DNA of 64,000 bases from an uncultured Acidobacteriota bacterium (GTDB taxonomy: Bacteria > Acidobacteriota > Blastocatellia > Pyrinomonadales > Pyrinomonadaceae): assembly GCA_963848875.1 (NCBI GenBank), contig CAWKFJ010000005.1, positions 2,192,305 through 2,256,304 of the forward strand, in the 5' to 3' direction. Position 1 is the first letter of the stretch. The number at the start of each line of letters is the position of its first letter. This document shows positions 9,939-28,896 of this stretch, piece by piece. The position numbers and the translations under genes are program-made. The notes beneath the pieces are model-generated. The model was not told where the DNA came from and did not search any database. It was given only the letters and a program-made list of their open reading frames with translations.

Positions 9939-9966
9939 GTCGTGCTCCTTGTGTGCGGCCGTGCCG

Positions 9967-12063: not shown

Positions 12064-12444
12064 AATCCTGCTCCCTAGCGTCTGCTTTCGCCCGCACATC
12101 ACGCCCCGCGGCGGCGAATTTATCAACACTCACAAGAAGACCTCTGCATTGATGCGGAGGATGAATTGTGTCCACCGCGCAAATGCTTTCAAATTTGCGC
12201 CTCAACTTGTGTTATCCTCACTCTCAAATACGACAGGTTTTGTCTGATGAGTTGCAAAGACTGTCAGAGTCACCTGTGCGGCTCTTTGAAACTCTAGCTA
12301 GGCGGTTGTTCAGGGGAGTCCTGAACGTAAAAGTTAGAACACTTAAGTAGAGAACCAAATAAGATAGTGCAGTTTGGTTGTGGATGAGCAACCATTGGTG
12401 AAAATCCATAGAAGCTCCTTTCTTTAGAAAGGGGAGTCATCACT

Positions 12445-13617
12445 CTAAGAGAATCTAGAACGAGAAGCCGCCGACATTCCGGGGGCCGCCCCTTCTGAAA
12501 GGGCCATGTTGCGCCGCCGCCAAAAGGGTGACTCCGGCCAGCGAATCTCTTGCGCGTAATAGCCCGCGCGTAGTGCCACGTACTGAGAGAACGTTTCTCT
12601 GGTCTCTGCGAAGAACCTCTGAAGGGCCGACTGGTCTCCGCCCGCAAACTGCTCGTAGGCGTCGGCCAAATCAAGACCGCTTTCCAGGGCCTTGCAAACC
12701 CCCTGGGACGAAAGCGGGTCCCACGCCATCGCGGCGTCCCCGACGGCGGCCCAGCAGTTGCCCCCGAGTTCCCCGGAAATAAAACTCGAAGCGGAGGCGA
12801 CTCTCAACACGCCGGCCGGGAAATTATTCGCCGCCCTCTTCACTCTCTCGGCGGTCGCCGCGGCACTGTCGAGCGCGTCGCGCCAGACGGCTACAGCCGA
12901 AACGCCCGTGACGAAATCCGCGTCCGTCATAAAGATTGCGACGAGCCCGCCCCGAGGCATGGGGGCCGAGTACCACCAGCCCAGCTCCGTGGCCTCTATG
13001 AGCGTCCTCAGGTTGGAGGCGTCGCCGGCCTGCCCGACGTTACAGGCCAACCCCACGAGGCGGTCAAGGACGAGACCGCGGGCGCGGGAGAGGGCGCGGC
13101 GCACGGCCCCGGCGCGCCCCGTGGCATCAATGATGAAGCTTGCGCAGAGTGTCCCGGCCCCGGCGGCCAACCGCACCCGCACCTCGCCAGTGTCTTCCTC
13201 GGCGCAGGACTGCATCCGCGCCCCGCGCAGAATGCGTACGCCCCGCCGCTCCGCTTCGGCGAGGAGAGAGGCGTCGAACCGCTCGCGGTCCAGGCTCCAG
13301 CCGCACCCGTGCGGGTTAAAAAGAAAATCATTCTCATTGGCAGCCCGCGACCCCCAGTAAGAGGTAATCCCTGTCGAGGGCAGATGCCGGCCGGCGGTGA
13401 ACGCCTCCCACACGCCGAGGCGCTGGAGGACGCGGCGGCCATGCGGCGGCAAGGTCTCTCCTAATTTGACGCGCGGCGCGTTCCTGGCGGGCCGGTCCAA
13501 GAGGACGACCGCGAAGCCTTTGTCCGCGAGACGAATTGCGGCGGCGGACCCGGCCGGGCCGCCCCCGACGACGACCACATCACATCTGCCCGTGACGGGC
13601 TCACCGGTGTCGAGCAT
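12445..13617 (-). CDS. FAD-dependent oxidoreductase, LodB/GoxB-like partner of the LodA-family oxidase
   Basis: Trimmed to ATG 13617, 1 nt after the upstream stop at 13619-13621. The N-terminal Rossmann motif is DVVVVGGGPAGSAAAIRLADKGFAVVLLDR. Sitting immediately downstream of a LodA-like gene is the classical lodAB arrangement. Confidence 0.75.
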   Translation of the reverse strand: MLDTGEPVTGRCDVVVVGGGPAGSAAAIRLADKGFAVVLLDRPARNAPRVKLGETLPPHGRRVLQRLGVWEAFTAGRHLPSTGITSYWGSRAANENDFLFNPHGCGWSLDRERFDASLLAEAERRGVRILRGARMQSCAEEDTGEVRVRLAAGAGTLCASFIIDATGRAGAVRRALSRARGLVLDRLVGLACNVGQAGDASNLRTLIEATELGWWYSAPMPRGGLVAIFMTDADFVTGVSAVAVWRDALDSAAATAERVKRAANNFPAGVLRVASASSFISGELGGNCWAAVGDAAMAWDPLSSQGVCKALESGLDLADAYEQFAGGDQSALQRFFAETRETFSQYVALRAGYYAQEIRWPESPFWRRRNMALSEGAAPGMSAASRSRFS

Positions 13618-13618
13618 C

Positions 13619-15122
13619 TTAATGGGGAGGGAGCTTCCGCTCGCGTTCGACGAAGACGGTCGCCCCGGCCTGATTCGTCTCCTGGACGACGACCCCGAGC
13701 TTCCCATAATTTTTGATGAGGCCGCTGTTGCCGCTCGCCCCTGTGATCGGCTCCACCCACCGCTTCATTTGCGGCTCACTACCGACTTTGTTCGGGTCGG
13801 TGAAGACTTTGTCCGGGCGTTGGGCGGGCCACCAAGCGAGCGAGGTGTCAGTTTTGCACGCCATGAAATCGGCCTGCCACGGCACCGCGTTCCCCTCCGT
13901 GAGAATCCCCGGCTTGAGCGCCGACGCGTCTAAGCGAAAAGGTTCGGCGTAGGACTGGGGCGCGGCGATGATAAGCCCGGCCTCTATCCCCGGGAAGAAC
14001 GCGCCGCCGACGCACGCCTGTAGGGAGACGCGGTCGAGCGCTTCGGGGAGCAGCTCCGCGGGGCGCCGGCCCCTGACTGTCGAAATCACCATCGGCCCAC
14101 TGCTGGATGAAACGGTACTGAACGGGCGTCAGCGACAAAGTATCCCCGTCGTTGAAGTCGTCGTTGAGGCGCGGCAGGTGTCCGGCCACGATATCCGGGG
14201 GCGAGCCGGGCCGGCGCAGGGCGGAGAAGAACTTTTGGCGCGTCTGCGCCTCTTGCGCCGGGTCGCCCAGCGCGTCCATCTTGCTGGCGAAGTCGTTCGC
14301 GGAGCCCGGCCCGAACTGTTTGAGGAAAATCTGGTTCGTCCACTGCATCTGCACGAAGCGTTCGAGGATGGGCCGGATGTGGCGCGTGAAGGACGGGCGC
14401 GCGGGGGCGGCGAGGAAACCTCTATCCACGGCCGCCTGAAACGCCACGTCGTACCACGTGACGATGTTCTGAATCCCCGGCGCGTAATCCGGCGGCGCGG
14501 TGACGACCCAGGCGGGCTTCGCCTTATGCACGATCCCGCCCAGGGTCACGCTGGCCTCAACTATTCCGTCCGCGATGTCGTCAAACCAGTCGGGGTTATC
14601 GGCGAAGTTGACTATGCCCGCCGGCGGCTTTGAGGCGGCGTGCCCACGCGCCGGTATGAAGACGAGTCGGCCGTCATTCCCCATTGTGATCTCCCCAAGG
14701 GGCACGGTCTCGCCCCTGAACTTCCCGTCGTTGAAGGCGGCTCGGGCCGCCGGGGTGTTCAAGGTGCGGGGGCTGGGCTTGATGGCTAGGTTGGGATCGT
14801 CGTCCGAGAGCGCGCCGTTGCGCCGCCCGTTGCCGACGAGCATCGGGCCGCACGCCTTGCGGTTGGCGACCGTGACGCGCCACTCGATCGAGGCGCCGCC
14901 GGGCGTCAACTCCTGTGCGTCGGTCAGCTTGTTGTTGGCGTCTCGTTCGCACTGGAAGACCCGGAAGCGGGCCGCCTGTTTCAGGAGATTCCCGTTCTGG
15001 TCTCGGTAGGAAGCCGGCGGGGCCGCGCCCGGCTCGGGCGCAAGGAAGAAGCCGTCTGCCAACTGGCTGTCGCCCACGCGGGCGATGCCAATTGAAGGGT
15101 GAATTTCAAAGGTGGTCGGCAT
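13619..15122 (-). pseudogene. LodA/GoxA-family CTQ quinoprotein amino-acid oxidase, split by a 1-nt frameshift
   Basis: Two overlapping ORFs (13848..15122 and 13619..14092) lie in different frames, and the span of 1504 nt is not divisible by 3. The N-terminus TFEIHPSIGIARVGDS and the segment QYRFIQQWADGDF are in the first frame. ACVGGAFFPGIEAG, VPWQADFMAC and AWWPAQRPD are in the second. All of these are LodA hallmarks as I recall the Marinomonas protein. The tail of the first frame is Arg/Pro-rich nonsense. Confidence 0.75.
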
Positions 15123-15201
15123 GCAGGGTGTCCTTTCTTCGATGAATAATGGGGCGCGCCGGATTTGGAGCGAGCGGCGCGGGCGGCCGCGAGAGACGAT
15201 G

Positions 15202-16665
15202 TCAGCCGCCCTGCAACTCGTCGCCGATGATTTGACGGCGCTCGTCCACGTCAGCCGTTACACTGTCAAGGATTCCGCCGCCGTCCGAGAAATCCGGCTG
15301 CGCCCTCATCCTTTCGATCAGCCTGTCGCTGGCGTTAAGCAACTCCGAGTAGAGCCGCCAGCGATCCACTTCGCGGTCGGGCAGGGCCAGCGTATACGGA
15401 AGCTCAAAGGGGGCTCCGGCCGCAGCTATCGAGCCGGCGACCCCCTTCTTCAGGGGCAGCGAGGTGAGCTTCGACATCAGGAGAGCGATGTTCGACATCT
15501 CGTTGAAGCACCACTCGACCAGGATGCCGCGCCGGGTCGAGAAGTCCGCCTTCAGGCTCAGGGAGTGCGAAAGACTGACGAGCAGCAGGCGATACCGCAC
15601 GTTACATAATTGAGCCCAGAGCCGCGTGGTCGGGTCGGTGATTCGGCCCGACTCGCGCACCCTCTCCTCGGCCAGCTCCTCCGTCGTGAGCCCCCCTTCG
15701 GGCTCAAGCGTGGTGTTCGGATTTAGGGGGACGGGGCGCGAGGGCCGCCAAGCGACGGGCTGCCCGGCCGCCGGCGAGTCGTCCGGGAACTGCTCGTAGA
15801 TTTCGACGAAGCGGTCGAAGTGGGACGGGGCCGGGCCGCCCTCGTTGGCCAGACCTTCGCCCTGCGCCGCGATGCGCGACAGGGCGTCCACGGCGCCCGG
15901 CTGGTCTGTGATCGGCAGAATGAGGAGGTTGCCGGTGTCCCCTCCCCACTCCTCAGCCGTCCCCTGCCGGTCGTCCGTGTCGGTGTGGAAGGCCGCAGGG
16001 TCGAGCGAGCCCACGAGTGATTCCAACTGTTCGTAAACCAGCCCGACTCGATTCACCATCACATCTTCAGACTTGAGACGCCGCAAGGCGTCGGCCACGA
16101 CCTGCTCTTTGCCGGCCGGGATTTGTTCGGGCATTTCGGCGGCGACGTACTTGGCCAAAGAGGTTTTTGTCAGCGGCTCAAGGATGAAGTGGAACGGGTA
16201 GAGGTCTGAGCGGAACGGGAAATCCTCGCGCTCGAAGTTCAGAGGGCCGCCGAGAATCCGCAGGAGGTTCTGGATGGTCAGCAGGTGCGCCATCTCCTCT
16301 TTAGCTATCTGGAATATCTTCCCGAACCACGCGAGCGTCAGTTGGCCTGCGTCGGCGGGGATGTTGGTTCCGGTGAGCTTGGAGGCGACCAGTTCGAGGG
16401 AGAAAGCCGTGTAAAGGTACTGAACCATCAGGGCGTGCTCTATTTCGGCGGCCGACTGTAGCAGGAAGACGGCCTGGTCCAGAGCGGTCAGCTCGCCCGC
16501 CTCCTCGGCGGCTCCCAGGGCGGCGGCCGAGGCCACTTCCGTCATGGGCTTGAACGACGAGCGCCGCTTCGTGAACGAGGGGAGATCGAGAGTTTCGAGC
16601 GGCAGCGTGACGAAACGGCTGGACTGTGTGCGGCGCCCGATTGTTTGAAGGAGTCGTCTGTTCAT
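15202..16665 (-). CDS. Ferritin-like (di-iron four-helix-bundle) domain protein
   Basis: 487 aa. LLQSAAEIEHALMVQYLYTAFSL and IAKEEMAHLLTIQNLL give paired ExxH motifs typical of the Ferritin-like family. Shine-Dalgarno-like GGTGAGAGG precedes the ATG. Confidence 0.7.
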   Translation of the reverse strand: MNRRLLQTIGRRTQSSRFVTLPLETLDLPSFTKRRSSFKPMTEVASAAALGAAEEAGELTALDQAVFLLQSAAEIEHALMVQYLYTAFSLELVASKLTGTNIPADAGQLTLAWFGKIFQIAKEEMAHLLTIQNLLRILGGPLNFEREDFPFRSDLYPFHFILEPLTKTSLAKYVAAEMPEQIPAGKEQVVADALRRLKSEDVMVNRVGLVYEQLESLVGSLDPAAFHTDTDDRQGTAEEWGGDTGNLLILPITDQPGAVDALSRIAAQGEGLANEGGPAPSHFDRFVEIYEQFPDDSPAAGQPVAWRPSRPVPLNPNTTLEPEGGLTTEELAEERVRESGRITDPTTRLWAQLCNVRYRLLLVSLSHSLSLKADFSTRRGILVEWCFNEMSNIALLMSKLTSLPLKKGVAGSIAAAGAPFELPYTLALPDREVDRWRLYSELLNASDRLIERMRAQPDFSDGGGILDSVTADVDERRQIIGDELQGG

Positions 16666-16723
16666 AACCTCTCACCTGAAGCTTGTCATTAGCGAGCTGG
16701 CCGGGGCCCGGCCGGCTCCCGGC

Positions 16724-17830
16724 CTAACCTTCGACGTGCCCGTGTTCATGCCCATCGCCTTCGTGCTCGTGCCCGTGGGCTCCGTGCTCGTGGTCGTCCT
16801 GCTGCTTGTGCGTCACGAACATGTAAGCCAGTATCCCGAACAGCATCGGCCAGGAAAACTTCAGCGGCTCCAGCAGAGGGATAAATCTGGCCGCCAGCCA
16901 GGTCAGCCCCGTCAAGATGAAGAGAAAGGCCATGATGGCGTGCTGGCGGTTGATCAAGCCGCTCGTGCCGTGGTGATGCCCGTAGAAGATGATGCCGGCG
17001 GCGATTAACCCCGCGGGCGGCGGCGCCGCTTCCTGACGACGTTCCTCCAGGCGGACCCCCGTGACCTTATTATCCTTGATTACGGCGCTCTGTAGCGCCG
17101 TCGATAAAGAAAACCTTGCGCCCTGCCGCTCGATCTTCGCGGCTATCGGCTCGAAGATCACTTCGGCGGGCAGTCCCTTCGGCCAGCGGGAGATGATCGA
17201 GTGCTGGTCGCGCAAGACGTAGAACTGTAGGCCGCTCAGGCCGCAGGCGGCCGACACCCTGTCGGGCGTAGTGAAGTCGAAAGAGAGGATGAAAGGTTCG
17301 AGCAGCAGCTTCTGGATTTTAGGCGAGACCCCGGTGGCATCCATCAGTTGCTGGAACGAGAACCCATCGTAGCGTTGGTAATCGTAGTCGGGGTTGAAAG
17401 CCATGGCGTGAATGCCGAAGCGTATCGTCCTGACGAGGTCGCCAAAAGAGAGAAAGCTCGAACGCAAAATCTGGAGGACGAAAAATAGCGGGCTCGGCAA
17501 ATCCCAGGAGAGGGTCTGCAACGGCTGGCGCTTACCGTCTGGCGTCAACAACACAGAACCCTCGGCCTGCTTGAAGACGTTGGCAGACATCACGTCGGAC
17601 CAGCGCAGCAGCCTGTCAAAGTTGAGATAGTTCATCCACCAGCCGTGGACGCCGTGCTCAAGACTCCGCCCGCTCTCTTTGTGGCTGTTGACCTTCCCCC
17701 CTAGCAGTCCCGAGCGCTCAACGACACGGACGGGAACCCCGCTGCGGGTCAATGCCATCGCGGCCGCTAGGCCTGCCGGGCCGGTCCCGACGACGACCAC
17801 CGGGGATGAAGTACCTGTTGGGTCTGCCAT
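16724..17830 (-). CDS. NAD(P)/FAD-binding oxidoreductase N-half fused to a 3-TM segment and a His-rich tail
   Basis: 368 aa. VVVVGTGPAGLAAAMALTRSGVPVRVVERSGLLGGKV is an amine-oxidase/desaturase-type dinucleotide fold. The C-terminus has hydrophobic helices (IIFYGHHHG..., AIMAFLFILTGLTWLAARF, MLFGILAYMFV) followed by HEHGAHGHEHEGDGHEHGHVEG. Confidence 0.7.
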   Translation of the reverse strand: MADPTGTSSPVVVVGTGPAGLAAAMALTRSGVPVRVVERSGLLGGKVNSHKESGRSLEHGVHGWWMNYLNFDRLLRWSDVMSANVFKQAEGSVLLTPDGKRQPLQTLSWDLPSPLFFVLQILRSSFLSFGDLVRTIRFGIHAMAFNPDYDYQRYDGFSFQQLMDATGVSPKIQKLLLEPFILSFDFTTPDRVSAACGLSGLQFYVLRDQHSIISRWPKGLPAEVIFEPIAAKIERQGARFSLSTALQSAVIKDNKVTGVRLEERRQEAAPPPAGLIAAGIIFYGHHHGTSGLINRQHAIMAFLFILTGLTWLAARFIPLLEPLKFSWPMLFGILAYMFVTHKQQDDHEHGAHGHEHEGDGHEHGHVEG

Positions 17831-17912
17831 CTATCCTAATAATTTTCCTCTTCCGTGGAACAGCGTCATGTTGACGGCCGCTCGGCGCGGCCGGGCGCTT
17901 ACCCTCAGCCTC

Positions 17913-19490
17913 CTAGAGGACTTTGGCGAACCTCAGTAAGTCCTCGATGGTGAACTTGTTCTTCTTCCTGCCGGGGAGGGTCGGCTTCCAGTTCTTCGTG
18001 CGCAGGATGGAGTCCTCGCTGCGCCGGATGAGGCCGATGAGCACTTCGGCGACTACGGTGCTGCCGACGGGTCCCAGGCGCTTGCCCTTCCCGTGGTGCG
18101 CCGCCTCGGCCAGGACGTAGTACCAGAGCGGCGTGCGCCTCGAAAAGCCCGAGTCGCGCAGGACGTTTAGCTGGCTCTCGGCGCCGGCCGGCGCGGCGAC
18201 CTTGGCCGCGACCGCTTCGAGCTGCGCAGCCGTCATCGGCGTGAGGCCCAGGGCCCTGGCGACGGCCTGCCCCGTGGGCATCCGCAGCAGGTAGCCGCGC
18301 AGCAAATTCCTCACGGCCAGCATCGCCCCCAGTCCTTCCTCCAACTCCCCCTTGAGAGTTTTCAGCTTGAAGAGCGGATTGGCTAACTGCGTGTCGAAGC
18401 GGCGGGCGCGGTTGCGCATCTTGTCGCCGAAGAAGTTCTCCCATTGGATTATCCAGTTCTCCGGCAGCGTGTCGAAGTCGCCGAGCTGGCCGCTGAGCGC
18501 CGTGAAGACGAAGAGGAGGTCTACGGTGGCCGGCACGGTGTTCGGCTTCCCGCTCGTGTTGAAGTTGAGGTTGAAGTCGTAATCCAGCCGCACCATCGTG
18601 TGGCCGAAGCGGTAGGCCGCCACGGCGAACTCCAGGGGCATGAAGAAGGGCTCAGCCAGCCCGTCGAAGAACTTGTTCTCCTTGAGGATGCCCCTCACGA
18701 TCTTCTTGTCCGCGATGGCCGGCAGGAAGTCATTGAGGACGATGTGCTGGTAGTGCTGCCTGAGCGTCCGGCGCGCCTCGGTGAAGGAGAGCCCGCGGTC
18801 GACCAGCGCGTTGTGCGCCAGCAGGAAGGCCAGGTGAAGCTGCGCGACGATGGTGTTCTCGTCGTTGCGCGGGTCGCCGATGCGCGCGGCGCGGTCTGTC
18901 CTCTCGTCGTTGCTGCGCGGGTCGCGCGAGAGGTCGTTCAGGTCGCCCTTCTTTGGCGGCCGCTTGAAGGGAACCTGGGTGTTGTTGGGGAGGGTTGTGA
19001 CCGCCCCTACCTGCATCTTGTCGCCGACGCGGGGGGCCGGCAGGTCGTAGACGCTGTCCAGGTCCAGGGTCGCCGTGCGCGCGTTCTTCAGCTTCTGGCG
19101 GATGTCGTCGAGCGGGAGCGGGGCGAGCGCCGGGTCGAGCAGCGTCTTCAAATCCGCCGAGGTCATTTCGAGCGTGATGTCATGATCCAGGAACTGCCCG
19201 AAGTAGGTGAAGACCGCGGAGATGTCGGAGTCGCCCTCATCGTCGTTGCCCGCGGCGTCGATCATCGTCTTGCCGAGGCGGGCGAGGTCGGCCACGGTCT
19301 TGCTCGACTCGGGCAGCAGGTTGATCGGGTTGTCTTGCAGCTTGGGGAACAGGAAATCGAAGTCCTTCAAGTCCACGGGCTGTGACGCGGCGAATGCCAG
19401 CGGCACGTTGGCGATGCTCGCGGCCACGCTCTCGCGCGCCTCCTGAAACTGCTGAATGGTGATTGTTTCTCCGTGACGTAAACGTGCCAT
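17913..19490 (-). CDS. Animal-type haem peroxidase family protein
   Basis: 525 aa. The hallmark distal-His motif is FTYFGQFLDHDITLE, with a later AYRFGHTMV (proximal His region). GGAGG lies 9 nt upstream of ATG 19490. No signal peptide. Confidence 0.85.
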   Translation of the reverse strand: MARLRHGETITIQQFQEARESVAASIANVPLAFAASQPVDLKDFDFLFPKLQDNPINLLPESSKTVADLARLGKTMIDAAGNDDEGDSDISAVFTYFGQFLDHDITLEMTSADLKTLLDPALAPLPLDDIRQKLKNARTATLDLDSVYDLPAPRVGDKMQVGAVTTLPNNTQVPFKRPPKKGDLNDLSRDPRSNDERTDRAARIGDPRNDENTIVAQLHLAFLLAHNALVDRGLSFTEARRTLRQHYQHIVLNDFLPAIADKKIVRGILKENKFFDGLAEPFFMPLEFAVAAYRFGHTMVRLDYDFNLNFNTSGKPNTVPATVDLLFVFTALSGQLGDFDTLPENWIIQWENFFGDKMRNRARRFDTQLANPLFKLKTLKGELEEGLGAMLAVRNLLRGYLLRMPTGQAVARALGLTPMTAAQLEAVAAKVAAPAGAESQLNVLRDSGFSRRTPLWYYVLAEAAHHGKGKRLGPVGSTVVAEVLIGLIRRSEDSILRTKNWKPTLPGRKKNKFTIEDLLRFAKVL

Positions 19491-19546
19491 TTAAATTTAC
19501 CTCCGATAAAAAATCCACGTCGCAGCAGTCCGTTACGAAAAGCGGC

Positions 19547-19573
19547 CGAGTCAGGCCGATCCGGCCTGACTCG
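19547..19573 (-). terminator. GC-rich hairpin, possible intrinsic terminator insulating the peroxidase cluster
   Basis: CGAGTCAGGCCG / CGGCCTGACTCG form a 12-bp stem with a 3-nt loop. On the minus strand it is followed by CTTTTCG. Confidence 0.4.
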
Positions 19574-20084
19574 CCGCCTCTTTGACTATTTCAACCAACA
19601 ATCCTACGTTCTGCTCGCTAGCACTCGACCGTATCGGTTTTGCTCAGGAATTTTTTTGAAAGATTAAGAGCACTCCCTCTTGAGAGAAACGCCTGCGTCT
19701 GGCCGAAGCTGCTTCGGATGATATAAGCACGCGGGAGACGGTCAGTCCGCACGGGTTTATATTCCTGGAAACTGACCAGTAGCTTGCGCCAAGCACGCCG
19801 AGAGATTCATTGGCTGCCCTGCTCTGCAAACGTTATATGTGGTTGTGTAAGAGCGTGAGGCCAGCCCGAGGAGTTCCAGCTGGCTCAAATGCGAGAATCA
19901 AACCGAAGAAAACGCGCCGCACTTTATGCCGAACTGTTTATCAAGTCAAGCCATTTCTTCCTACAGGCAGGCCACTTTATAAATTTTGATCTGGCATCCT
20001 TCCAACTTAATACTCTTGGTGACGCAACTACTCTTCTAAAATATATGTCGCGAGAGGGTAAAACGTTTCAAGCATCCCGCGTCC

Positions 20085-20216
20085 GGTCGTGTCTCACAAG
20101 AGATGTTTGACATGGCTCTGGTACGCCTTCGAGCCACGCTCTCGTCAGATCGTCGCCTGGCTTATTGGCGAGCGGACGGACCAAAGTTGTCGGCAAAGAC
20201 ATAGAGTAGGAACTTA
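20085..20216 (+). mobile_element. IS1-family transposase (InsB-like) fragment, a remnant
   Basis: My translation SHKRCLTWLWYAFEPRSRQIVAWLIGERTDQSC matches the InsB pattern [28 protein letters not shown]. It is flanked by stops with no full-length ORF, and it sits in an AT-rich 0.8-kb spacer. Confidence 0.5.
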
Positions 20217-20291
20217 GAAATTCCATCACGGTTAACCATCTTAATCAAACCTTTAGAGAATGAGTTTGTCTATAACGTCGGTAGCGTACTT

Positions 20292-23200
20292 CTAGGGCTG
20301 TTGTAATTTTCGCTCGATTTCTCCCAGCATCTCTCGCGACTTTTGAATCTCTTCAGCCGCTCGGTCGCCGAAAGTCTCAAAGTTGCTCAGGCCGGCAGAG
20401 GCGTATGCCTGAGCGTCGGCGAGGCGGCCGTGTTTCGTGAGGATGCCGGCAATGAACAGGCGGGTTACGGCAGCGCCATGAATATCGTCCTCCATCTCGG
20501 CGTAGCGGATTGAGTACCGAAAGTGAGCCAGCGAGAGGTTGTCTTGACCCATGAAATAGTAAATGGTGCCAAGTTGGTGGTGGATCAACCCCAATGGCGC
20601 AACCTCACCTGTCGGCGTGGTGAGTCTGAGCGCGGACTGGTAAAACTTTAGAGCGGAGCTGAGGTCAGCCAGTCGTTCATCCGCGCGCCCTTCGGCGTAC
20701 GCCTCCATATAGCGTTCGTAGGCCACGCGGCCTAAGAGTGTAAAAAGTTGAGCCCGTCCTCTGGCATCCTCTTCGTCGTGAAGCCCCACACTGCGGCGCA
20801 GCCAGAGTTCCGCTTTCGCCAGATCGCGCAAGCTTGGAATCTTCAAGTGCGCGGCGCCGATGTTCGTAGCGGCGACGGCAGCCATGAAACGCTCGCCGAA
20901 CCGTTCTGCCAACGTGAATGCTTCCTCGCACACCGTCAAACTCTCCGGCTCACGACGCTCAATTTGAATCTTACCTAAAAGGTTCAGGGAGTTTATTAAC
21001 GTGCGGATGGACTCACGCTGCGTATCATCTAGCGCATCGGGCGCTACGGCGAGAGCCGCGGCCGCCTGTCGGCGTGCCAAGTCTATGCCGATGTGTTGAA
21101 GGCGCTCGGCCTCGTCTAACCGGCGAGCTTCTCTTGCAAAGCCCACGCGACTGTCATTAATAAAGAACCAGCCTCTCTCCCGGCCGGGAAGAGGGGCGTC
21201 GGTTTTTGGCTTCACAAAGTCGGCCGCGACCTCGTTCAAAAGGGCAGACCATTCGGCGCGCCGCCCCGTATGCTCATACAGGACGTCAAGTGCCTGCATG
21301 GTACCAATGATTCCGGGCTCCCAGCCGTTCTCACGCGCTAGCTGAAGGGCGTTGAGAATGTTGAATTGATCGTGGCTGAGGTAGGTGATAACGTCGCTCT
21401 TGCCGGCGGTGTAGGATTGCGCGCTCAGGCTTCCCGCTCTCCAGACCGTTTCGACAAACGCCTGGGTTGCCCTTCTTGCATCCGGGTAATACTGGTCAAA
21501 GAGCCTCTTGAAAAACCAAGGGAGCGCGGGGTGAATCGAATAGAACCCTGCACCGTGAGCGGTCAGCAACCCGACTTCGGCAGCACGGTCGAGGAGCGCA
21601 GAGCTCTCATCACTGGTCAAGCCTCGGAGCTCAGCCAGGCCCCATTCGGATTCAGGTTCACCCATCACAGCCAACGCGGCTGCGTCCACGAAGCCCTGAA
21701 AGAAATAAAGGAGGGCGAGCCGTCTGCGTTGGTCTTCGCTGAACGCGTTGTCGAAGCCGTAGCTCAATGACGCGCCCAAAGACTTCGACCGGCCTTCGCT
21801 CGCCTCGTCGTTGAATTTCGCCTCCCCGGTGCGCAGCCTGTCTACGAACTCTTCGACCTGCTCCCTCGTTTTCAGGCCGTCGAGTAAACACTGTCCGACC
21901 AGGACCGTGATCGCCAGCGGGTTCCCGACCGTGAAGCGCAGGAGCGGCAGCCAGTCCTCGACTTCGGTCAAACGCCTCCCGTGCTTCTCGGCAAGTGCCC
22001 GCGTTAGTTGTACCCGCTCCTGCATCGGCATCGGCGGCATCGTTATCCGCGCGGGCAAGTCGCCCAACCAGCCGCGCTCATCCCGTCGCGAGAGCAGCAG
22101 AATTTTCGCCTTCGTGTGCTGCGCGGCGCGCAGGAAATCAGCCAGCTCGCCCTGCTGGGCGTCGCTCCACGCCGACCGCGTGCCGGAAGGGAAGCCTGCA
22201 ACCAGTTCAACGTTATCCCAAATCCATAAGAGCGGGTTGCGGGCCATGAGGCGTAGCGCCTCGTCGCCTCGCTCCTTGTTGGTCAGCGCGTGCCATTGAA
22301 TGCCCGATCGCTCAAGCTCGTTGCCGAATGCCGGATCGATGGCGTCGTTCAACGCGGACGCCAGCGGCTTGAACCGCTCGAACGAAGTGAATAGTGCCGG
22401 GCCATTGATGCCGCCGGTAGATTGATACCAGCGAGCGAACTCGGCCGCCGTCGAGGTCTTACCGCTGCCGGCATAGGCGTGGAGGAGTACGACGTTTTTG
22501 ATGTCGAAGGCGCGGTCAATCGCGAGCAGCGTCTCGTCGCGTCCGAAGAAACCGGCGTCGGGCCGCTTCTTCAATTCGGGAGTGGGCGCGCCAGTCCCTG
22601 AAAGCGCCCTGCCGGCACTTAGATAAACTGTAGATTGTGCTTTCTCTGCCGTTCTGGGGAACAGCACGACTGGCTCGGCCTCGTATACGGCCGGCACTAT
22701 CCAGTCCTGTAGCGGCCGCGGCCGGTACGCGATCTCTCGCAACGGCTGTTCCCTGAGTTGTCTGCGGCCCAGTGTCACTGCTTCGCTTAGTGCGTGCCCT
22801 CTAGCCAGCGCCTCGTAAAGGTTGGCGACGAACTGCGCGGCGGTGATGACATAGACGTTGTACCGCATCGCCACCACGCCGGGCACGCCGGCGTCAACTA
22901 CCTCCTGCGCCAAAGAGCCAAACGCCCGCACGCGGACGTGCGCGTCCTGACTCACCGCGTCGCGCGGCGCCGTGGAGGGCGAGCCGGAACGATCAGCGCC
23001 CGTGGTCGCCGTCGCGGTCGGTTCCGGGGGCGCTTCCGCGTGCGCCGACCGGCAGGCGTTGAGTACCAGGATGGGTACCTCAGTCTTGGCGAGCAGACTG
23101 CCGAGGAAGGTCCCGTGTATGAGTTCGACGTTGTTTTGGAGCGCGGGATTCTCAAAGGTAAGGTAGCCCCGCATCTTTACAGGCGGCCGACCCGCGCCTG

Positions 23201-23924
23201 CGGCGTACAGGTCAGTGTAAATACCGTGTCCGTCGAAGTGGACGATGTGATAGGGGGCGCCGGCATTTTTGGCGGCCCGCAGAACTTGCCCCAGCCGCTC
23301 AAAGGTCGGCGGCCGAAGCACGTCGAGGTGGAAAGCGGCGCGGGCGTTCCCGTCCAGACCCTTGATAAGGCGGCTCGCCACCGACCGAAACGGCACGTCG
23401 GCGCGGCCGCCCGGACGGCAGATCACAAGCAGGATGCGAATAGGTCCGGCAACGACTTTGACCGGACGCGCATTCAGGGCAGCTCGTTGCGTAGTTCGCA
23501 CGAAGGCGCGCGCGCCGACGGCGAGGAACGTCTTGGTCTGTGGGTCGTACAAAAGTTCCCAGGGGAGCGGCGCTGCGTTGCGCACGCCAGTGACGATTTC
23601 TATCCGCGTATCGCTCATGTGGTCGTGCAGCCCGGCCCAGATGTCCCGGACGTCATCGTTGCTTTGGAAGAGCGCACGGAAAAGGCCGCCCCCCAGTTCA
23701 AAGATGCGTCGTTCGATGCGGGCCGCGATCTTCGGCGCGGGGTCTGAAACGTGTTGCAGGTAGTCCTCAAGATACCAGCGGAGGTCTTCCCGCTCCTGAG
23801 GTGTAACGGCGAAATCTGACTCCGTGGCTGCTGTCCGGCGCAGCAGTCCGGCGCCTTCGAGAGTAACTTCCACCCGATATATACTAGAAGTGACGGACGA
23901 CTGTGTGAGACGGAGCGTTTGCAT
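20292..23924 (-). CDS. CHAT protease - STAND (NB-ARC-like) NTPase - TPR protein (paralog 1)
   Basis: 1210 aa. The CHAT dyad is YHIVHFDGHG (His) and ILVLNACRSAH (Cys). The Walker A is LLHAYAGSGKTSTAAEFARWY and the Walker B-like motif is LLWIWDNVE. The C-terminal third is TPR-like helical repeats. Confidence 0.85.
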   Translation of the reverse strand: MQTLRLTQSSVTSSIYRVEVTLEGAGLLRRTAATESDFAVTPQEREDLRWYLEDYLQHVSDPAPKIAARIERRIFELGGGLFRALFQSNDDVRDIWAGLHDHMSDTRIEIVTGVRNAAPLPWELLYDPQTKTFLAVGARAFVRTTQRAALNARPVKVVAGPIRILLVICRPGGRADVPFRSVASRLIKGLDGNARAAFHLDVLRPPTFERLGQVLRAAKNAGAPYHIVHFDGHGIYTDLYAAGAGRPPVKMRGYLTFENPALQNNVELIHGTFLGSLLAKTEVPILVLNACRSAHAEAPPEPTATATTGADRSGSPSTAPRDAVSQDAHVRVRAFGSLAQEVVDAGVPGVVAMRYNVYVITAAQFVANLYEALARGHALSEAVTLGRRQLREQPLREIAYRPRPLQDWIVPAVYEAEPVVLFPRTAEKAQSTVYLSAGRALSGTGAPTPELKKRPDAGFFGRDETLLAIDRAFDIKNVVLLHAYAGSGKTSTAAEFARWYQSTGGINGPALFTSFERFKPLASALNDAIDPAFGNELERSGIQWHALTNKERGDEALRLMARNPLLWIWDNVELVAGFPSGTRSAWSDAQQGELADFLRAAQHTKAKILLLSRRDERGWLGDLPARITMPPMPMQERVQLTRALAEKHGRRLTEVEDWLPLLRFTVGNPLAITVLVGQCLLDGLKTREQVEEFVDRLRTGEAKFNDEASEGRSKSLGASLSYGFDNAFSEDQRRRLALLYFFQGFVDAAALAVMGEPESEWGLAELRGLTSDESSALLDRAAEVGLLTAHGAGFYSIHPALPWFFKRLFDQYYPDARRATQAFVETVWRAGSLSAQSYTAGKSDVITYLSHDQFNILNALQLARENGWEPGIIGTMQALDVLYEHTGRRAEWSALLNEVAADFVKPKTDAPLPGRERGWFFINDSRVGFAREARRLDEAERLQHIGIDLARRQAAAALAVAPDALDDTQRESIRTLINSLNLLGKIQIERREPESLTVCEEAFTLAERFGERFMAAVAATNIGAAHLKIPSLRDLAKAELWLRRSVGLHDEEDARGRAQLFTLLGRVAYERYMEAYAEGRADERLADLSSALKFYQSALRLTTPTGEVAPLGLIHHQLGTIYYFMGQDNLSLAHFRYSIRYAEMEDDIHGAAVTRLFIAGILTKHGRLADAQAYASAGLSNFETFGDRAAEEIQKSREMLGEIERKLQQP

Positions 23925-24260
23925 AGGATGACCTCAGTGTAGGAATGGCGAAACGGAGACCGGCCGTTAATATTATATACGGGCGAGCAAGCTCCCATCT
24001 CAAAATACTTGCCGCAACACAGCCCTCGCTCCATAGACACGCGCGGTCGGACAAAGTATGGCGAATTCCTCCGGCATCAACGGCGGAGAAGAGCATTGAC
24101 ACCGGCAAGGCGTAGCTATAACGTACCGCCGCTGTAATGATTGACAGGTTGCCCTGGCGCCTGCCTGTTGCTTCACGGCTGTCCACCTATCATTGGCGAA
24201 AGCAGTGGCATGAGATAACACGCCAGTTTGTCGTACTGCATTACTGCTTGAGTAATCTGT

Positions 24261-27200
24261 ATGCCGACGTTACGGCTTAATCAAACCTCCGAAGGAGGCG
24301 GCGCTTATCTCATCGAGGTGAGCCTCGAAGGTGACAACTTACACCGCTCGTACAGCGTGTCGGGCTGTAGCTTTACTCTGCCTGAACAAGACCATGAAGA
24401 CTTGCGCTGGTATCTTGAAGACTACTTGGAGCATCCCTTCGACCCGGCCCCCATCATCGCCAACCGAATAGAGCGCCGCATAACTGAGATAGGAGGGGAG
24501 CTCTTCGATTCAATATTCCGGGCTAACGAAGATGCGCGCGAAGTGTGGAAAGAAGTGGCCGGCCGCTTGGACGCGACCCGCGTCGAAGTAGTCACACCAA
24601 TCGGAGAAACCACCACCGTCCCTTGGGAATTGCTCTTTGACCCCGAGGCGGGCACGCATTTAGCCTTGCAATGCCAGTCCTTCGTGCGCGTCGCTTCCAA
24701 CGTCAACGGCCGCGCGGAAGGCGAGCAACTACCCGCGAATAACAAACGAAGCGCGCCCGACGTCATGCCGTCGCCTGCTAATGCAGGGGGATGCTTCAGT
24801 CTAAGTGAAAGCACTTCGGCTCCTGTTCGGATTCTGCTAATCATCAGCCGCCCGATCGACTCGGGCGAAGTGCCGTTCCGCTCCGTCGCCAGTCGCCTCC
24901 TGAAGAGTTTGCACGGACGCCCCGGCTTCGAGCTTGATGTGCTCCGCCCCCCAACCTTCGCTCGGTTGAACGACCGGCTACGCGAGTCGCAGGCAGAAGG
25001 CCGCCCCTACCACGTAGTTCACTTCGATGGGCACGGGGTCTACGAGGATTTACAAGCCTCGCTCTTAAAGCGGCCACCCAAAAAGAGGCGCGGTTACCTG
25101 CTGTTCGAGAACGTCGAGGATCATAAAGGCGAGCCGATCCACGGGACGTTGCTCGGCCGTAGCCTCGCACAGGCGGGGGCTCCATTGTTGCTGCTCAACG
25201 CCTGCCGCTCGGCGCAGGCGGAGGCGTCGGCGGAACCGGGAAAGGGCGTGACCGAGAACCACCCGCGCGCCTTCGGCTCGCTGGCCCAGGAGGTAGTGGA
25301 GGCGGGCGTGCCCGGCGTGGTGGCTATGCGTTACAACGTGTATGTGGTTACCGCCGCGAGGTTCGTGGCCGACCTGTATACGGCGCTCGCGCGGGGGCTG
25401 ACGCTGGGCGAGGCTGTGACGCAAGGGCGCAAAGAATTATACCGCCACGCGGAGCGCGAGCTCGTTTACGTCTCGCGCGAGTTGCAAGATTGGTCGGTGC
25501 CGGTTGTCTTTGAAACCAAGCCCGTCGCGATCTTAGCGAACGCCGCGGCCGAGGGCGAGGAATCGCGTGATGATTCGCCCCCTGCGACGGTGACCGCCGC
25601 CCCGCGCGGCGAAGTCCCGGCCCCCTCGGACACAGGCTTCATCGGCAGGGACGAGACACTGCTCGACCTTGAGCGCGCCTTCAACACGGAACAGATCACT
25701 CTCCTACACGCCTACGCCGGCAGCGGTAAGACCACCGCCGCCGCGGAGTTCGCACGCTGGTACGAACTGACGGGCGGAGTTGATGGACCGATCCTCTTAA
25801 CCTCGTTCGAACGATACACGCCTTTAGTAAGAGTGCTGGACGCCGTCGAACGTGCGTTCAGCGAAAGGTTGAAGCGGGAGGGAGTGGACTGGCTGGCGTT
25901 GGATGACGCCTCGCGCCGGGACAAGGCGCTGCAAGTGCTTGGCGAGGTCTCGACCCTGTGGGTGTGGGATAACGTCGAATCAATCGCCGGCTTTCCCTCA
26001 GGCGTGCCCTCCGAGTGGAGCGCGGCGGAACAGCGGGAACTGGCAGAGTTCCTGCGAGAGGCGCGGCACACAAAGGCCAAGTTCCTGCTGACCTCGCGCC
26101 GCGATGACCACGAATGGCTGCACGGTTTGGCGGTGTGGCATATCCTCCTGCCGCCGATGCCGATGCTAGAGCGTGTGCAGATGTTACGCTCGCTCGCCGA
26201 GAAACACGGGCGGCCGCCCGTCAACATCCTCGACTGGCTACCGCTGCTCGAATACACACAGGGCAACCCGCTGACGATCATCGTGGTAGTCGGTCAGGCG
26301 CTGCGCGACCGACTCGACACTAAGGAGCAACTGGATGCTTTCGTCGCCCGCCTGCGCGCTGGGGAGGCGGCCTTTGATGATGAGCAGAGCGAGGGCCGTT
26401 CGAAATCACTCGGTGCTTCCCTCAGTTATGGGTTCGCGCACGCGTTCAACGCAGACGAGCTTAGAATTCTCGCCCTGCTCGCGCTCTTCCAGAGTTACGT
26501 GGACGTGACCGATCTCTACTGGATGGGCCACCCCGAAATCGGTGACTTGCCCCAACTCCGCGACCTGTCGCGCGAGGCGCGCATCTCACTGCTCAACCGC
26601 GCTGCGAACGTGGGCTTGCTCACGGCCTGCGTGGGTTCGGTCGAGGGCGTGGTTTACGCCATCCACCCTGCGCTGCCATGGTTCTTCAGAAAACTGTTCG
26701 ATGAACACTACCCGGCGGGCGTAGACGGCGAGGGTGAAGATTTGAGACTGCGGGCCATGCGCGCCTATGCTGCCGCGATAGGCGCGACGGGTGTTTACTA
26801 CCATAAGCTGTACTACGATGAAGGCCAGGTGGACGTTATCGACCCCCTGGCAGCGGCGGAGGCCAACCTTCACCACGCCTGGAAGTTGTCCCGCGCCAAC
26901 GGCTGGTGGACGACCGTCATCAGCACAATGCAAGGTCTGGACACTCTCTACTCCCACACCGGGCGGCGCGCGGAGTGGGAGCGCATGGTCAAAGAAGTCG
27001 TCCCCGACTTCATCGAACCGTCCACCAACAGACCGCTCCCGGGACGCGAGGCGGAGTGGAACAAGGTCATCGAATATCAGGTTGACTCGGCGATGAGGGC
27101 GCGGCGGTGGGCGGAGGCCGAGGGCTTGCAACTCGTTCGCGTCAAGTGGGAGCGCGAACGCGTCGCGCCTTTGCTCGGCGTGCCGCCGGGCAAGTTGGAT

Positions 27201-27977
27201 AAATTCCAGCGGAGGGCCGTCCAATCGCTCGCCGTGTCGTTGAGCTGGCTGGGAGATATAGAGCTGAGGCTCGGCAAGACGGAATGCGTCTCGTTGTATC
27301 AGGAAGCCGTCGAGCTGTACCGGCGGCTCGGCGAAACGCGCAACGAGGCGAGCGCCGCTTCCAAATTGGGTGACGTCTACAAAGAGCTTCCCGCGCTTCG
27401 CGACCTGGAGCAGGCCGAACACTGGTATCAATATGGCTTGCAACTTCTCGACAGGCGCGATCACTTGGGGCGCAGCAGACGCTTGGCCGATTTGGGGCTG
27501 CTGGCCTACGAGCGTTTCAACGAGGCGCTGAAGGCAGACCGCGCGGAGGAGGAGATGCGGCCCCATTTGGAGGCCGCGGCGCAACACTACGAGAAGGCGC
27601 TGCACGAACTGGGGCTGCTGCCGACCGAAGCCGTCGGTGATCTGGCTGCGGCACATAACCAACTCGGCGTCATTTATGACACGCTGGCCGGCCTCGGCGA
27701 CTTCGCCCGCGCCTTATCGCACTACCAGGAGGCTATACGTTTCTTGGAGCAGCAGGGTAACCTTTACGACGCCGCCTCCGCGCGCTTCAACGTCGCCATC
27801 GCTCTCCACGGAGAAGGGCAGTACGCAAAGGCACTGCTGTACGCGCAGGCAGCGCTGAAAAATTATCAGGCTGACGGGGAGCAAGCGGCCGCCGAGATCG
27901 AACGGACGCGCCAGGCGATTAACCGGATTGAGCAAGACCTGAAAGCGGAAGGAGACAAGACGTATGAGCACGTCTGA
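24261..27977 (+). CDS. CHAT protease - STAND (NB-ARC-like) NTPase - TPR protein (paralog 2)
   Basis: 1238 aa with the same architecture: YHVVHFDGHG, LLLLNACRSAQ, LLHAYAGSGKTTAAAEFARWY, LWVWDNVE and C-terminal TPRs. It is roughly half identical to paralog 1 by eye and carries an extra ~40-aa insertion before the CHAT core. Confidence 0.85.
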   Translation: MPTLRLNQTSEGGGAYLIEVSLEGDNLHRSYSVSGCSFTLPEQDHEDLRWYLEDYLEHPFDPAPIIANRIERRITEIGGELFDSIFRANEDAREVWKEVAGRLDATRVEVVTPIGETTTVPWELLFDPEAGTHLALQCQSFVRVASNVNGRAEGEQLPANNKRSAPDVMPSPANAGGCFSLSESTSAPVRILLIISRPIDSGEVPFRSVASRLLKSLHGRPGFELDVLRPPTFARLNDRLRESQAEGRPYHVVHFDGHGVYEDLQASLLKRPPKKRRGYLLFENVEDHKGEPIHGTLLGRSLAQAGAPLLLLNACRSAQAEASAEPGKGVTENHPRAFGSLAQEVVEAGVPGVVAMRYNVYVVTAARFVADLYTALARGLTLGEAVTQGRKELYRHAERELVYVSRELQDWSVPVVFETKPVAILANAAAEGEESRDDSPPATVTAAPRGEVPAPSDTGFIGRDETLLDLERAFNTEQITLLHAYAGSGKTTAAAEFARWYELTGGVDGPILLTSFERYTPLVRVLDAVERAFSERLKREGVDWLALDDASRRDKALQVLGEVSTLWVWDNVESIAGFPSGVPSEWSAAEQRELAEFLREARHTKAKFLLTSRRDDHEWLHGLAVWHILLPPMPMLERVQMLRSLAEKHGRPPVNILDWLPLLEYTQGNPLTIIVVVGQALRDRLDTKEQLDAFVARLRAGEAAFDDEQSEGRSKSLGASLSYGFAHAFNADELRILALLALFQSYVDVTDLYWMGHPEIGDLPQLRDLSREARISLLNRAANVGLLTACVGSVEGVVYAIHPALPWFFRKLFDEHYPAGVDGEGEDLRLRAMRAYAAAIGATGVYYHKLYYDEGQVDVIDPLAAAEANLHHAWKLSRANGWWTTVISTMQGLDTLYSHTGRRAEWERMVKEVVPDFIEPSTNRPLPGREAEWNKVIEYQVDSAMRARRWAEAEGLQLVRVKWERERVAPLLGVPPGKLDKFQRRAVQSLAVSLSWLGDIELRLGKTECVSLYQEAVELYRRLGETRNEASAASKLGDVYKELPALRDLEQAEHWYQYGLQLLDRRDHLGRSRRLADLGLLAYERFNEALKADRAEEEMRPHLEAAAQHYEKALHELGLLPTEAVGDLAAAHNQLGVIYDTLAGLGDFARALSHYQEAIRFLEQQGNLYDAASARFNVAIALHGEGQYAKALLYAQAALKNYQADGEQAAAEIERTRQAINRIEQDLKAEGDKTYEHV

Positions 27978-28896
27978 CTGGTTTGATGATCTGCCCGTGA
28001 TCGGCCAACTGTCGCCGGTGGAGGCGGCGGCGAAGCTGCGACAACTGGGCGAGGACGAAACCGCCGACTCGATCGAGGCGGCGCAGCGCGATATGCAGGC
28101 GTCGGCACACAGCTTCGGCCTGAGCGAACTGTTGGGGTTCGGTGAAAGGCCTTGGCAGCACACTGCGCACGCCTTCGGCTACTTGGCCCCAGCCAAGCCC
28201 GGTAACGACCTGCTGCCCATCCGGCACGCGGGCAACATCGACGGCGACGCTAGCCTCAAAAACTCGCGGGTGAAGATTGCGCTCAATCGGCTGCGCGTGG
28301 CGGATTATCCCGGCGGGGGGATGCACCATGTGCTCTTTGATTTCTACGCGCAGAACCAACTCCCGGGAGAGGTGGAGCACCTGCACTTCAACGCCGCCTT
28401 CCGCGTGCTCGAAGGCCAACAGGCGGCCATCATCAACTACCCGATATTCGTCGGGCTGAACGTCGGCGGCGAAGGCGTGGCCTTCAAGTGTCTCGTGGTC
28501 AACGTGAAGAATGAACAGGACGAGGCGTTCCTCGGTTTCCTGGAGTCCGAAGTGTTTCAGTCGGGATTAAAACTGGCGATGACCGCGCAGCCCGCGATCG
28601 CGCCCCTCTCGCAGATGGCGCTTGGGCTGACTAAATCCATCGCCAAGCGTAACCGAAATGTGCCAGTACAGGAGTTCTCAATGGGACTCGACTTTACGTC
28701 AAACGCCTTAGGCGCCCGACTCGCCGAGGGTGACTACATAGCCGTTCAGATTCCAATGAAGATGCGAACCATTTGGGATTGGGACGAGTGGGTCTACAAC
28801 CCGAAAAGCGGCGAGATCGTGAACATTGACGACCATAGCCAGCTAATTCCATACAATTACCTTGTCTTTAGCATTAACCGCTACGAGGGGGCGTAG
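27964..28896 (+). CDS. Hypothetical 310-aa protein translationally coupled to CHAT-STAND paralog 2
   Basis: Its ATG lies inside the last codons of the upstream gene (14-nt overlap, tATGAGCACGTCTGA). No TM helix, signal peptide or catalytic motif that I recognise. Acidic helical N-terminus followed by a beta-rich body. Confidence 0.65.
   Translation: MSTSDWFDDLPVIGQLSPVEAAAKLRQLGEDETADSIEAAQRDMQASAHSFGLSELLGFGERPWQHTAHAFGYLAPAKPGNDLLPIRHAGNIDGDASLKNSRVKIALNRLRVADYPGGGMHHVLFDFYAQNQLPGEVEHLHFNAAFRVLEGQQAAIINYPIFVGLNVGGEGVAFKCLVVNVKNEQDEAFLGFLESEVFQSGLKLAMTAQPAIAPLSQMALGLTKSIAKRNRNVPVQEFSMGLDFTSNALGARLAEGDYIAVQIPMKMRTIWDWDEWVYNPKSGEIVNIDDHSQLIPYNYLVFSINRYEGA

Follow-up and report, generated by a model that had tools for sequence, protein, structure and literature searches.

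About ten families of protease-associated effectors have been listed for prokaryotic immunity, in which protease-gated effectors with NLR-like sensors have lately been recognised as a major logic (PMC12642450). EACC1 with caspase-Avs12 and Pepco with trypsin-Avs4 were shown experimentally to be latent pore-formers that are released by the protease-fused Avs proteins (PMC12642450), the two-gene EACC1-caspase system having first been described computationally (Kaur et al. 2020, PMC7159879). The release of a bacterial gasdermin by a CHAT/caspase protease has also been demonstrated experimentally (Johnson et al., bioRxiv 10.1101/2021.06.07.447441). Here, we analysed a stretch of 64,000 nucleotides (nt) of DNA from an uncultured Acidobacteriota bacterium (contig CAWKFJ010000005.1; hereafter the window), in which two divergently transcribed genes encode giant proteins made of a CHAT domain, a STAND NTPase and a C-terminal sensor of TPR type, the second of them being coupled to a gene for a protein of 310 amino acids (aa). 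With a little better than even confidence, we read this locus as an NLR/Avs-like module of two genes, a protease and its effector, that carries a second sensor.

The initial annotation of this DNA had described two divergent open reading frames (ORFs) of 1210 and 1238 aa, and the coordinates of both were borne out by ORF, Pfam and motif reading. Giant 1 (CHAT-STAND NTPase-helical/TPR; 1210 aa) lies on the minus strand at 20292-23924, and giant 2 (CHAT-STAND NTPase-TPR; 1238 aa) on the plus strand at 24261-27977. The intergenic region between them (23925-24260) has exactly the 336 base pairs (bp) first given, and is AT-rich only in relative terms, with a GC content of 0.533 against 0.633 for the window. 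It presumably holds the promoters of both giants. The promoter and terminator scans did not rise above chance: 4 sigma-70-like sites were found for 2.8 expected, none of them within the 336-bp gap. A scan for DNA repeats retrieved only the giants' own paralogy, i.e. inverted matches of 70-76% over the protease and NTPase parts. The span first described ended at 27977 and left out the coupled gene. This gene, which encodes the 310-aa partner and putative protease-licensed effector, is located at 27964-28896 on the plus strand, its first 14 nt being shared with the end of the giant 2 gene, stop codon included.

We then compared the neighbourhoods of the genes encoding members of the family of this partner (hereafter small genes) in 64 genome loci plus a set of metagenome contigs. 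About 25 independent loci, spread over many phyla, have a full-length CHAT-NTPase-TPR giant immediately beside the small gene and on the same strand. The small gene is usually located 3' of the giant and occasionally 5' of it, with gaps ranging from -36 to +350 nt, and most loci contain a single giant. Of the 38 loci with at least 4 kb of flanking sequence on both sides of the small gene, a caspase-fold gene lies no more than about 3 kb away from it in 26. Moreover, the pairwise identities of the small proteins correlate with those of the adjacent giants (r = 0.80), which indicates that the two were inherited together. No third conserved gene was seen beside the giant and the small gene in the neighbourhoods compared.

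The neighbour of the small gene also varies in architecture, and in loci that lack a close giant it is often a caspase-fold protease of another build. It is a TPR-CHAT protein with the CHAT domain at its C-terminus in two loci (L053 and L055), a 380-aa Peptidase_C14 caspase in another (L044) and a short CHAT protein in a fourth (L046), and NACHT proteins are found in this position in a fifth (L047). In a metagenome-assembled genome of Desulfomonile tiedjei (L064, 7047-14568), the small gene stands between a pair formed by a UvrD-like helicase and a DUF2290 protein and a pair formed by an AAA ATPase and a Peptidase_S8 subtilase. In addition, the small domain is fused to a CHAT domain in a single ORF, verified on its contig (P0326). 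Other fusions place it C-terminal to an LCAT-like lipase, to a phosphoesterase of the phospholipase C family, or to a LysM and VgrG3-like muramidase; the corresponding genes adjoin a CHAT-NACHT gene, an EAD1-trypsin gene and a trypsin gene, respectively. Thus, the small family displays the adjacency that marks protease-effector modules: its neighbours are CHAT proteins with the domain at either terminus, C14 caspases, trypsins and subtilases, and it also occurs fused to CHAT.

Two further contexts of the small gene were observed. In one locus (L071, 1-8671), the LysM-VgrG3-like muramidase-small fusion adjoins both a trypsin-like protease and a Tc-toxin-like (SpvB/TcdB) gene whose product exceeds 2500 aa. 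In Sorangium sp. So ce176 (L056, 9938-18723), the small gene is followed by genes encoding iSTAND, CoxE-like vWA and 1210-aa SLOG/FGE-sulfatase proteins, and similar loci were found in Sorangium at L057, L059, L060 and L063. An adjacent CHAT was not detected in these Sorangium loci. This suggests that the small family also plugs into iSTAND-type ternary systems.

The 310-aa protein had no match in Pfam, NCBIfam, PADLOC, PHROGs, PDB sequences or PDB profiles. For three divergent members of its family, Pfam returned zero matches even at E-values up to 10. The EACC1, Pepco (Trypco) and CATASP families are presumably covered by Pfam models. The family is nevertheless large, with more than 1150 clusters at 90% identity (E <= 1e-3) and 649 representatives at 50% identity, 309 of which were retrieved at E <= 1e-30. 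Its members are 63-70% identical across Chloroflexota, Acidobacteriota, Planctomycetota, Cyanobacteria, Desulfobacterota, Gammaproteobacteria, Bacteroidota, Actinomycetota and Myxococcota. No transmembrane helix was predicted in the 310-aa protein, its top hydropathy window corresponding to predicted beta-strands, and its only cysteine is C176.

We modelled the 310-aa protein with AlphaFold2. An alignment of 33 sequences gave a predicted local distance difference test (pLDDT) score of 62.6, too weak to interpret, and an alignment of 150 diverse sequences gave a pLDDT of 89.8 with a predicted template modelling score (pTM) of 0.89. The latter model predicts a helical hairpin, a linker and a beta-sandwich with a helical insertion. 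The acidic N-terminal hairpin part covers aa 1-46 (nt 27964-28101), the hairpin itself (aa 18-46) having a net charge of -7. The linker (about aa 47-62, nt 28102-28149) is the only low-confidence interior stretch near the N-terminus of the model; in the alignment, it is also the stretch with the most variation and gaps, and the segments on either side of it are highly conserved. It contains a semi-conserved [T/S/A]-[F/Y]-G motif (28111-28119), with F in 104 and G in 111 of the 150 sequences. The predicted beta-sandwich core extends from aa 63 to aa 310 (sandwich proper to aa 306) and contains the C-terminus of the protein within its well-ordered part. It is interrupted by an insertion of three helices (aa 184-228, nt 28513-28647), which are moderately amphipathic.

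No PDB entry matched this model at E <= 1e-3 in Foldseek. The best PDB matches were the C2 domains of PI3K, PLC-delta and Itch (best E 3.7e-3), and the resemblance is weak, with a template modelling (TM) score of about 0.3 on the query; normalised to the C2 domain of Itch, the score is 0.54. A single structural match to the model was significant, that to the BFVD entry A0A1V0SF49, an uncharacterised giant-virus protein from Hokovirus HKV1 (E 1.7e-6, TM 0.46 over 269 columns, 11% identity).

Concerning the giants, both contain a CHAT domain above the curated Pfam cut-off of 24 bits, with 56.2 bits for giant 1 (aa 120-401, nt 22722-23567) and 79.4 bits for giant 2 (aa 110-413, nt 24588-25499). 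The intact His/Cys dyad reported in the initial annotation was found in both, within an HFDGHG motif (23223-23240 in giant 1, 25020-25037 in giant 2) and an LNACRS motif (23046-23063 and 25194-25211). These two motifs do not vary among 22 aligned homologues, which come from several phyla and include proteins of only 25-35% identity. The catalytic residues are thus kept among the orthologues, a point that the initial annotation had left to be checked, and H254, H258 and C315 (giant 2 numbering) are all invariant. On the basis of the Pfam match and these motifs, we class the giants as CHAT proteins of the caspase fold (clan CD) with predicted proteolytic activity.

The Walker A and B motifs reported for the NTPase were also recovered, and both giants present the canonical STAND order: GSGKT for Walker A (22455-22469 in giant 1, 25719-25733 in giant 2), W[IV]WDNVE for Walker B (22206-22226 and 25959-25979), [LT]SRRD for sensor-1 (LSRRD at 22080-22094, TSRRD at 26091-26105) and GNPL for GxP (21915-21926 and 26262-26273). 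Across the 22 homologues, the P-loop residues G489/K490 and the G668-N669-P670 stretch are invariant. The best PDB match of a profile of the NTPase region was PH0952, an archaeal STAND with a TPR sensor (6mfv; E 4.8e-3), the alignment covering the Walker A, GxP and winged-helix segments. STAND membership is assigned mainly from the set of motifs, since the AAA_16 scores of 25.2 and 24.1 bits are below the cut-off of 32.6 and since Apaf-1 and a plant NLR match the profile weakly (E 0.2-1). As for the C-terminal TPR arrays that had been read in both giants, that of giant 2 (C-terminal sensor, 26541-27974) stands clearly, with TPR_12 at E 2.4e-11 in Pfam, and that of giant 1 is weak (TPR_MalT/TPR_12, E 0.01-0.03). 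The homologues of the giants bear many TPR models. One homologue of giant 2, of 1374 aa (P0406), has an additional TIR_2 (PF13676) in the precomputed Pfam list.

The two giants are 47% identical over their full length (BLASTP, E = 0), and this identity is unevenly distributed: 56% in the CHAT domain, 60% in the NTPase, 46% in the middle part and 36% at the C-terminus. The conservation of the protease and NTPase modules and the divergence of the TPR ends, as first described, are therefore real. The insertion specific to giant 2, located in the stretch 24690-24821, also exists, at about 27 aa rather than the 40 or so first estimated (about aa 150-176, nt about 24.70-24.79 kb; multiple alignment with 21 homologues that do not have it), and it falls just ahead of the first core strand of the CHAT domain. 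The giants had been presented as duplicated paralogues. A recent tandem duplication was rejected: each giant is as close or closer to homologues from other phyla (up to 55-57% identity) than to the other giant (49%), and a neighbour-joining tree (no bootstrap support computed) does not place the two as sisters.

A second arrangement of the same kind was found in a locus from Phycisphaeraceae (L015), which independently presents the order giant-small-giant. Its two giants are 56% identical overall, with a similar gradient of 71, 70, 46 and 32% from the CHAT domain to the NTPase, the middle part and the C-terminus. In another locus (L070), a divergently transcribed CHAT-NTPase giant is paired with a gene encoding a small-CHAT fusion. 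In the window, giant 1 has no partner gene downstream, and it is full-length with all its catalytic and NTPase motifs intact. Given these two parallels and the integrity of giant 1, it is plausible that giants 1 and 2 share one effector, which giant 1 would use in trans.

By analogy with known protease-effector modules, the terminal effector would most likely be the conserved 310-aa protein, and probably not the CHAT domain. The initial annotation had proposed sensors that diversify on a fixed effector; the divergence of the sensors holds, also in the gradient of L015, and the identification of the CHAT domain as the terminal effector probably does not. We propose the following chain because a constant small partner, interchangeable sensor-fused proteases and a flexible linker match the pattern of gasdermin, EACC1 and Pepco. 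A ligand (a protein from a phage or another invader) would bind the TPR array and lead to a nucleotide-dependent oligomerisation, which would bring the CHAT domains together and activate them. The target of the activated CHAT would be the flexible, variable linker of the 310-aa protein (about aa 47-62), with the [T/S/A]-[F/Y]-G motif as a possible site, and a cut there would part the acidic N-terminal hairpin from the beta-sandwich core. The freed core might then act on the envelope or the membrane, resulting in cell arrest or death. With similar protease and NTPase modules and different sensors, the two giants would allow two specificities to feed one shared effector. Gene structure, motifs, family conservation, association with proteases, fusions and the predicted fold come from the analysis; what sets off the module, whether and where the protease cuts, a toxic action, the use of the effector in trans by giant 1 and the membrane target are inferred. 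The last is the weakest step and is speculative: it is suggested by the natural fusions of the family to a lipase, a phospholipase and a muramidase, together with the weak C2 resemblance.

The likeness to the EACC1 system is close in organisation, with a small, constant and non-enzymatic partner beside a large and variable caspase-STAND-repeat protein (Evans et al. 2025, PMC12642450). In that system, the protease removes an autoinhibitory segment from the N-terminus, after which the rest of the protein permeabilises membranes (PMC12642450). However, EACC1 has about 115 aa and one transmembrane helix and is usually encoded by the 5' gene, whereas the partner described here is a 310-aa protein with a predicted beta-sandwich, no transmembrane helix and no Pfam match, usually encoded by the 3' gene. 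Pepco (Trypco) is similarly a protease-gated latent effector with varied sensors that is shared among serine and cysteine proteases (PMC12642450), but its 117 aa form pre-assembled beta-barrels from which a C-terminal tail is cut, and it has no sequence relationship to the 310-aa protein. Gasdermins resemble the partner as proteins of about 250-300 aa encoded beside interchangeable caspase-like proteases that are often fused to TPR, NACHT or repeat domains, and in having a protease-accessible loop between a short inhibitory segment and a core. Unlike the 310-aa protein, with its single C176 and a candidate inhibitory piece that is N-terminal, they have a palmitoylated N-terminal cysteine and a C-terminal inhibitory peptide. 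We also considered that the 310-aa protein could itself be a gasdermin, and rejected this identity: there was no Pfam or PDB match, no gasdermin among 50 Foldseek matches and no N-terminal cysteine.

The giants share with Avs and other NLR-like STANDs the order of an N-terminal effector, a STAND NTPase and a C-terminal TPR-like sensor (Gao et al. 2022; PMC13581612). For STAND proteins, 589 clades have been published (PMC13581612). The Avs-type layout with a caspase-like effector that had first been proposed thus stands for the order of the modules. It does not extend to a match with Avs itself, since no PADLOC Avs model recognised the giants and no solved Avs structure in the PDB was matched by their NTPase profile. 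The term "Avs-type" therefore describes here a logic and not a family membership. The CATRA ternary system also combines a caspase-TPR protein with conserved partner proteins in a restricted phyletic distribution (PMC12657218). It is described as having three components and variable effector domains (PMC8195603), unlike the two conserved genes found here. CATRA and CATASP are set apart from the 310-aa protein indirectly, by the absence of a Pfam match and of a third conserved gene. Finally, in the type III-E Craspase (Csx29), the TPR is N-terminal to CHAT, there is no NTPase, and Cas7-11 and Csx30 are associated, unlike the CHAT-NTPase-TPR order of the giants. No Cas-like Pfam match was found among the window ORFs scanned (about 13.8-35.3 kb and selected others), CRISPR arrays not being searched for.

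By size or Pfam match, the 310-aa protein appears to fit none of the ten effector families of PMC12642450; the logic is thus known, and the effector family apparently not. If the proposed reading is true, the 310-aa protein would be a new type of executioner, its family would provide a conserved marker for finding protease-based systems, and the locus would constitute a natural test of several sensors sharing one effector. It is also possible, although on the doubtful side, that the family represents a whole new class of protease-licensed death effectors, i.e. a gasdermin analogue built on a C2-like beta-sandwich. Such a class would be used by caspase-, trypsin- and subtilisin-type proteases across phyla and would also have been recruited to lipases, phospholipases and muramidases as a module that gates or targets them, with two-sensor loci (the window and L015) as the bacterial counterpart of several NLRs converging on one executioner.

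We infer a defence role for the module, and several observations weigh against this role or against the effector function. The search with defence-system hidden Markov models proposed in the initial annotation matched no Avs or other defence model: PADLOC (PADLOC-DB, 2023) gave only weak SAVED_CHAT and TPR matches (E 1e-3 to 2e-5). The locus was accordingly not assigned to any known defence system, PADLOC, NCBIfam and PHROGs having given nothing useful. In the window, the locus is flanked by a cluster of oxidases and peroxidases and by genes of a pilus or type II secretion system, with no defence island, and non-defence surroundings were found elsewhere too, for instance at L068. Only about 10-12 of 140 neighbouring proteins match PADLOC models, a proportion given with no background control, and about one-third of the well-flanked loci have no adjacent protease. 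Moreover, at about 65% identity across phyla, the 310-aa family is more conserved than is usual for defence effectors. A membrane target is speculative because the protein has no transmembrane segment, its inserted helices are only moderately amphipathic and its C2 resemblance is weak. On the other side, several loci are near toxin-antitoxin pairs, a DNA methyltransferase, restriction genes, an integrase, insertion sequence (IS) elements or the helicase-DUF2290 pair, which we take to be a described defence system. The contexts of the homologues, which the initial annotation had pointed to as a possible source of contrary evidence, are therefore mixed, with defence or mobile neighbours in some loci and metabolic flanks in others.

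Three other explanations were considered. In one, the CHAT domain is itself the effector, as in the view of the initial annotation, and would kill by broad cleavage of host or phage proteins; the 310-aa protein would then be a regulator (a pseudo-substrate or inhibitor, an adaptor that presents substrates, or a co-sensor). Broad-cutting caspase-like effectors are indeed known, such as PCaspase and the caspase-like effector of type IV Thoeris (PMC12642450). A regulator that has to fit a conserved protease could be expected to be as strongly conserved as the small protein, and the enzyme fusions of the latter could mean that the small domain is a protease-gated lock on other toxins. However, a stand-alone small protein found with CHAT, C14, trypsin and subtilase proteases is more in keeping with an effector or substrate that can be moved between proteases than with an inhibitor specific to one of them, and every small constant partner of STAND-fused proteases characterised so far is a latent effector (PMC12642450). 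We consider this explanation unlikely. The same holds for a role outside antiviral defence, in which the module would perform regulated proteolysis in development, stress or kin-related cell death, as in the case of the cyanobacterial CHAT protease HetF. The concentration of the family in Chloroflexota, filamentous cyanobacteria, Sorangium, actinomycetes and planctomycetes is in line with such a role, as are the flanks in the window and at some other loci, which are not defence-like. The Sorangium small gene also adjoins iSTAND and vWA genes, a class statistically tied to a multicellular habit (PMC7159879), but these iSTAND/vWA systems have themselves been interpreted as conflict or immunity systems (PMC7159879). 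Furthermore, the family is patchy across phyla yet about 65% identical, which implies horizontal transfer; the integrase, IS, toxin-antitoxin, restriction and helicase-DUF2290 neighbours of several loci also speak against such a role, and the divergence of sensors over a constant core is what arms races typically produce.

The third explanation concerns only giant 1, which a rearrangement could have orphaned; it would have no functional link to giant 2 and the small gene, and the divergent pairing would be incidental. Where a partner gene would be expected, 3' of giant 1, there is a non-coding gap of 773 bp (19519-20291; GC 0.50) that contains a fragment of an IS1-family transposase on the plus strand (20062-20214; DDE_Tnp_IS1, E 5.8e-6, 27.1 bits for a cut-off of 24.1). 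This fragment may mark a past rearrangement. Neither tblastn nor a six-frame reading retrieved a remnant of a second small gene there. The non-sister position of the two giants and the single giant of most loci would also be expected for an orphan. Against this, giant 1 has kept its full length and its catalytic and NTPase motifs, two giants accompany one small gene in L015 as well, and in L070 a divergent CHAT-NTPase giant likewise stands beside a gene that includes the small domain. An orphan giant 1 is therefore quite improbable, and we retain the two-gene protease-effector module with a second sensor as the favoured reading of the locus.

Other genes of the window deserve mention. A gene for a 347-aa Peptidase_C14 caspase (3451-4494, plus strand) overlaps the start of an ORF of 788 aa without Pfam match (4472-6838, plus strand), and this pair (3451-6838) may be a second, unrelated protease-partner module. 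Another conflict-type NTPase architecture is encoded at 59890-61455 (plus strand), where a protein of 521 aa presents a TIR_2 followed by an AAA_35 (E 3.8e-115), and a protein of 2137 aa with an N-terminal subtilase (Peptidase_S8) and RHS repeats is encoded at 51473-57886 (minus strand). Three ORFs of 436-720 aa (8232-10019 and 9967-12129 on the minus strand, 38193-39503 on the plus strand) had no Pfam match at E <= 1e-5. Finally, a run of oxidative enzymes lies on the minus strand at 12445-19490, with a Trp-halogenase-like flavoprotein, a LodA_N (lysine-epsilon-oxidase-like) protein, a ferritin-like protein, an FAD amine oxidase and an animal-type haem peroxidase, and may be a cofactor or secondary-metabolite cluster.

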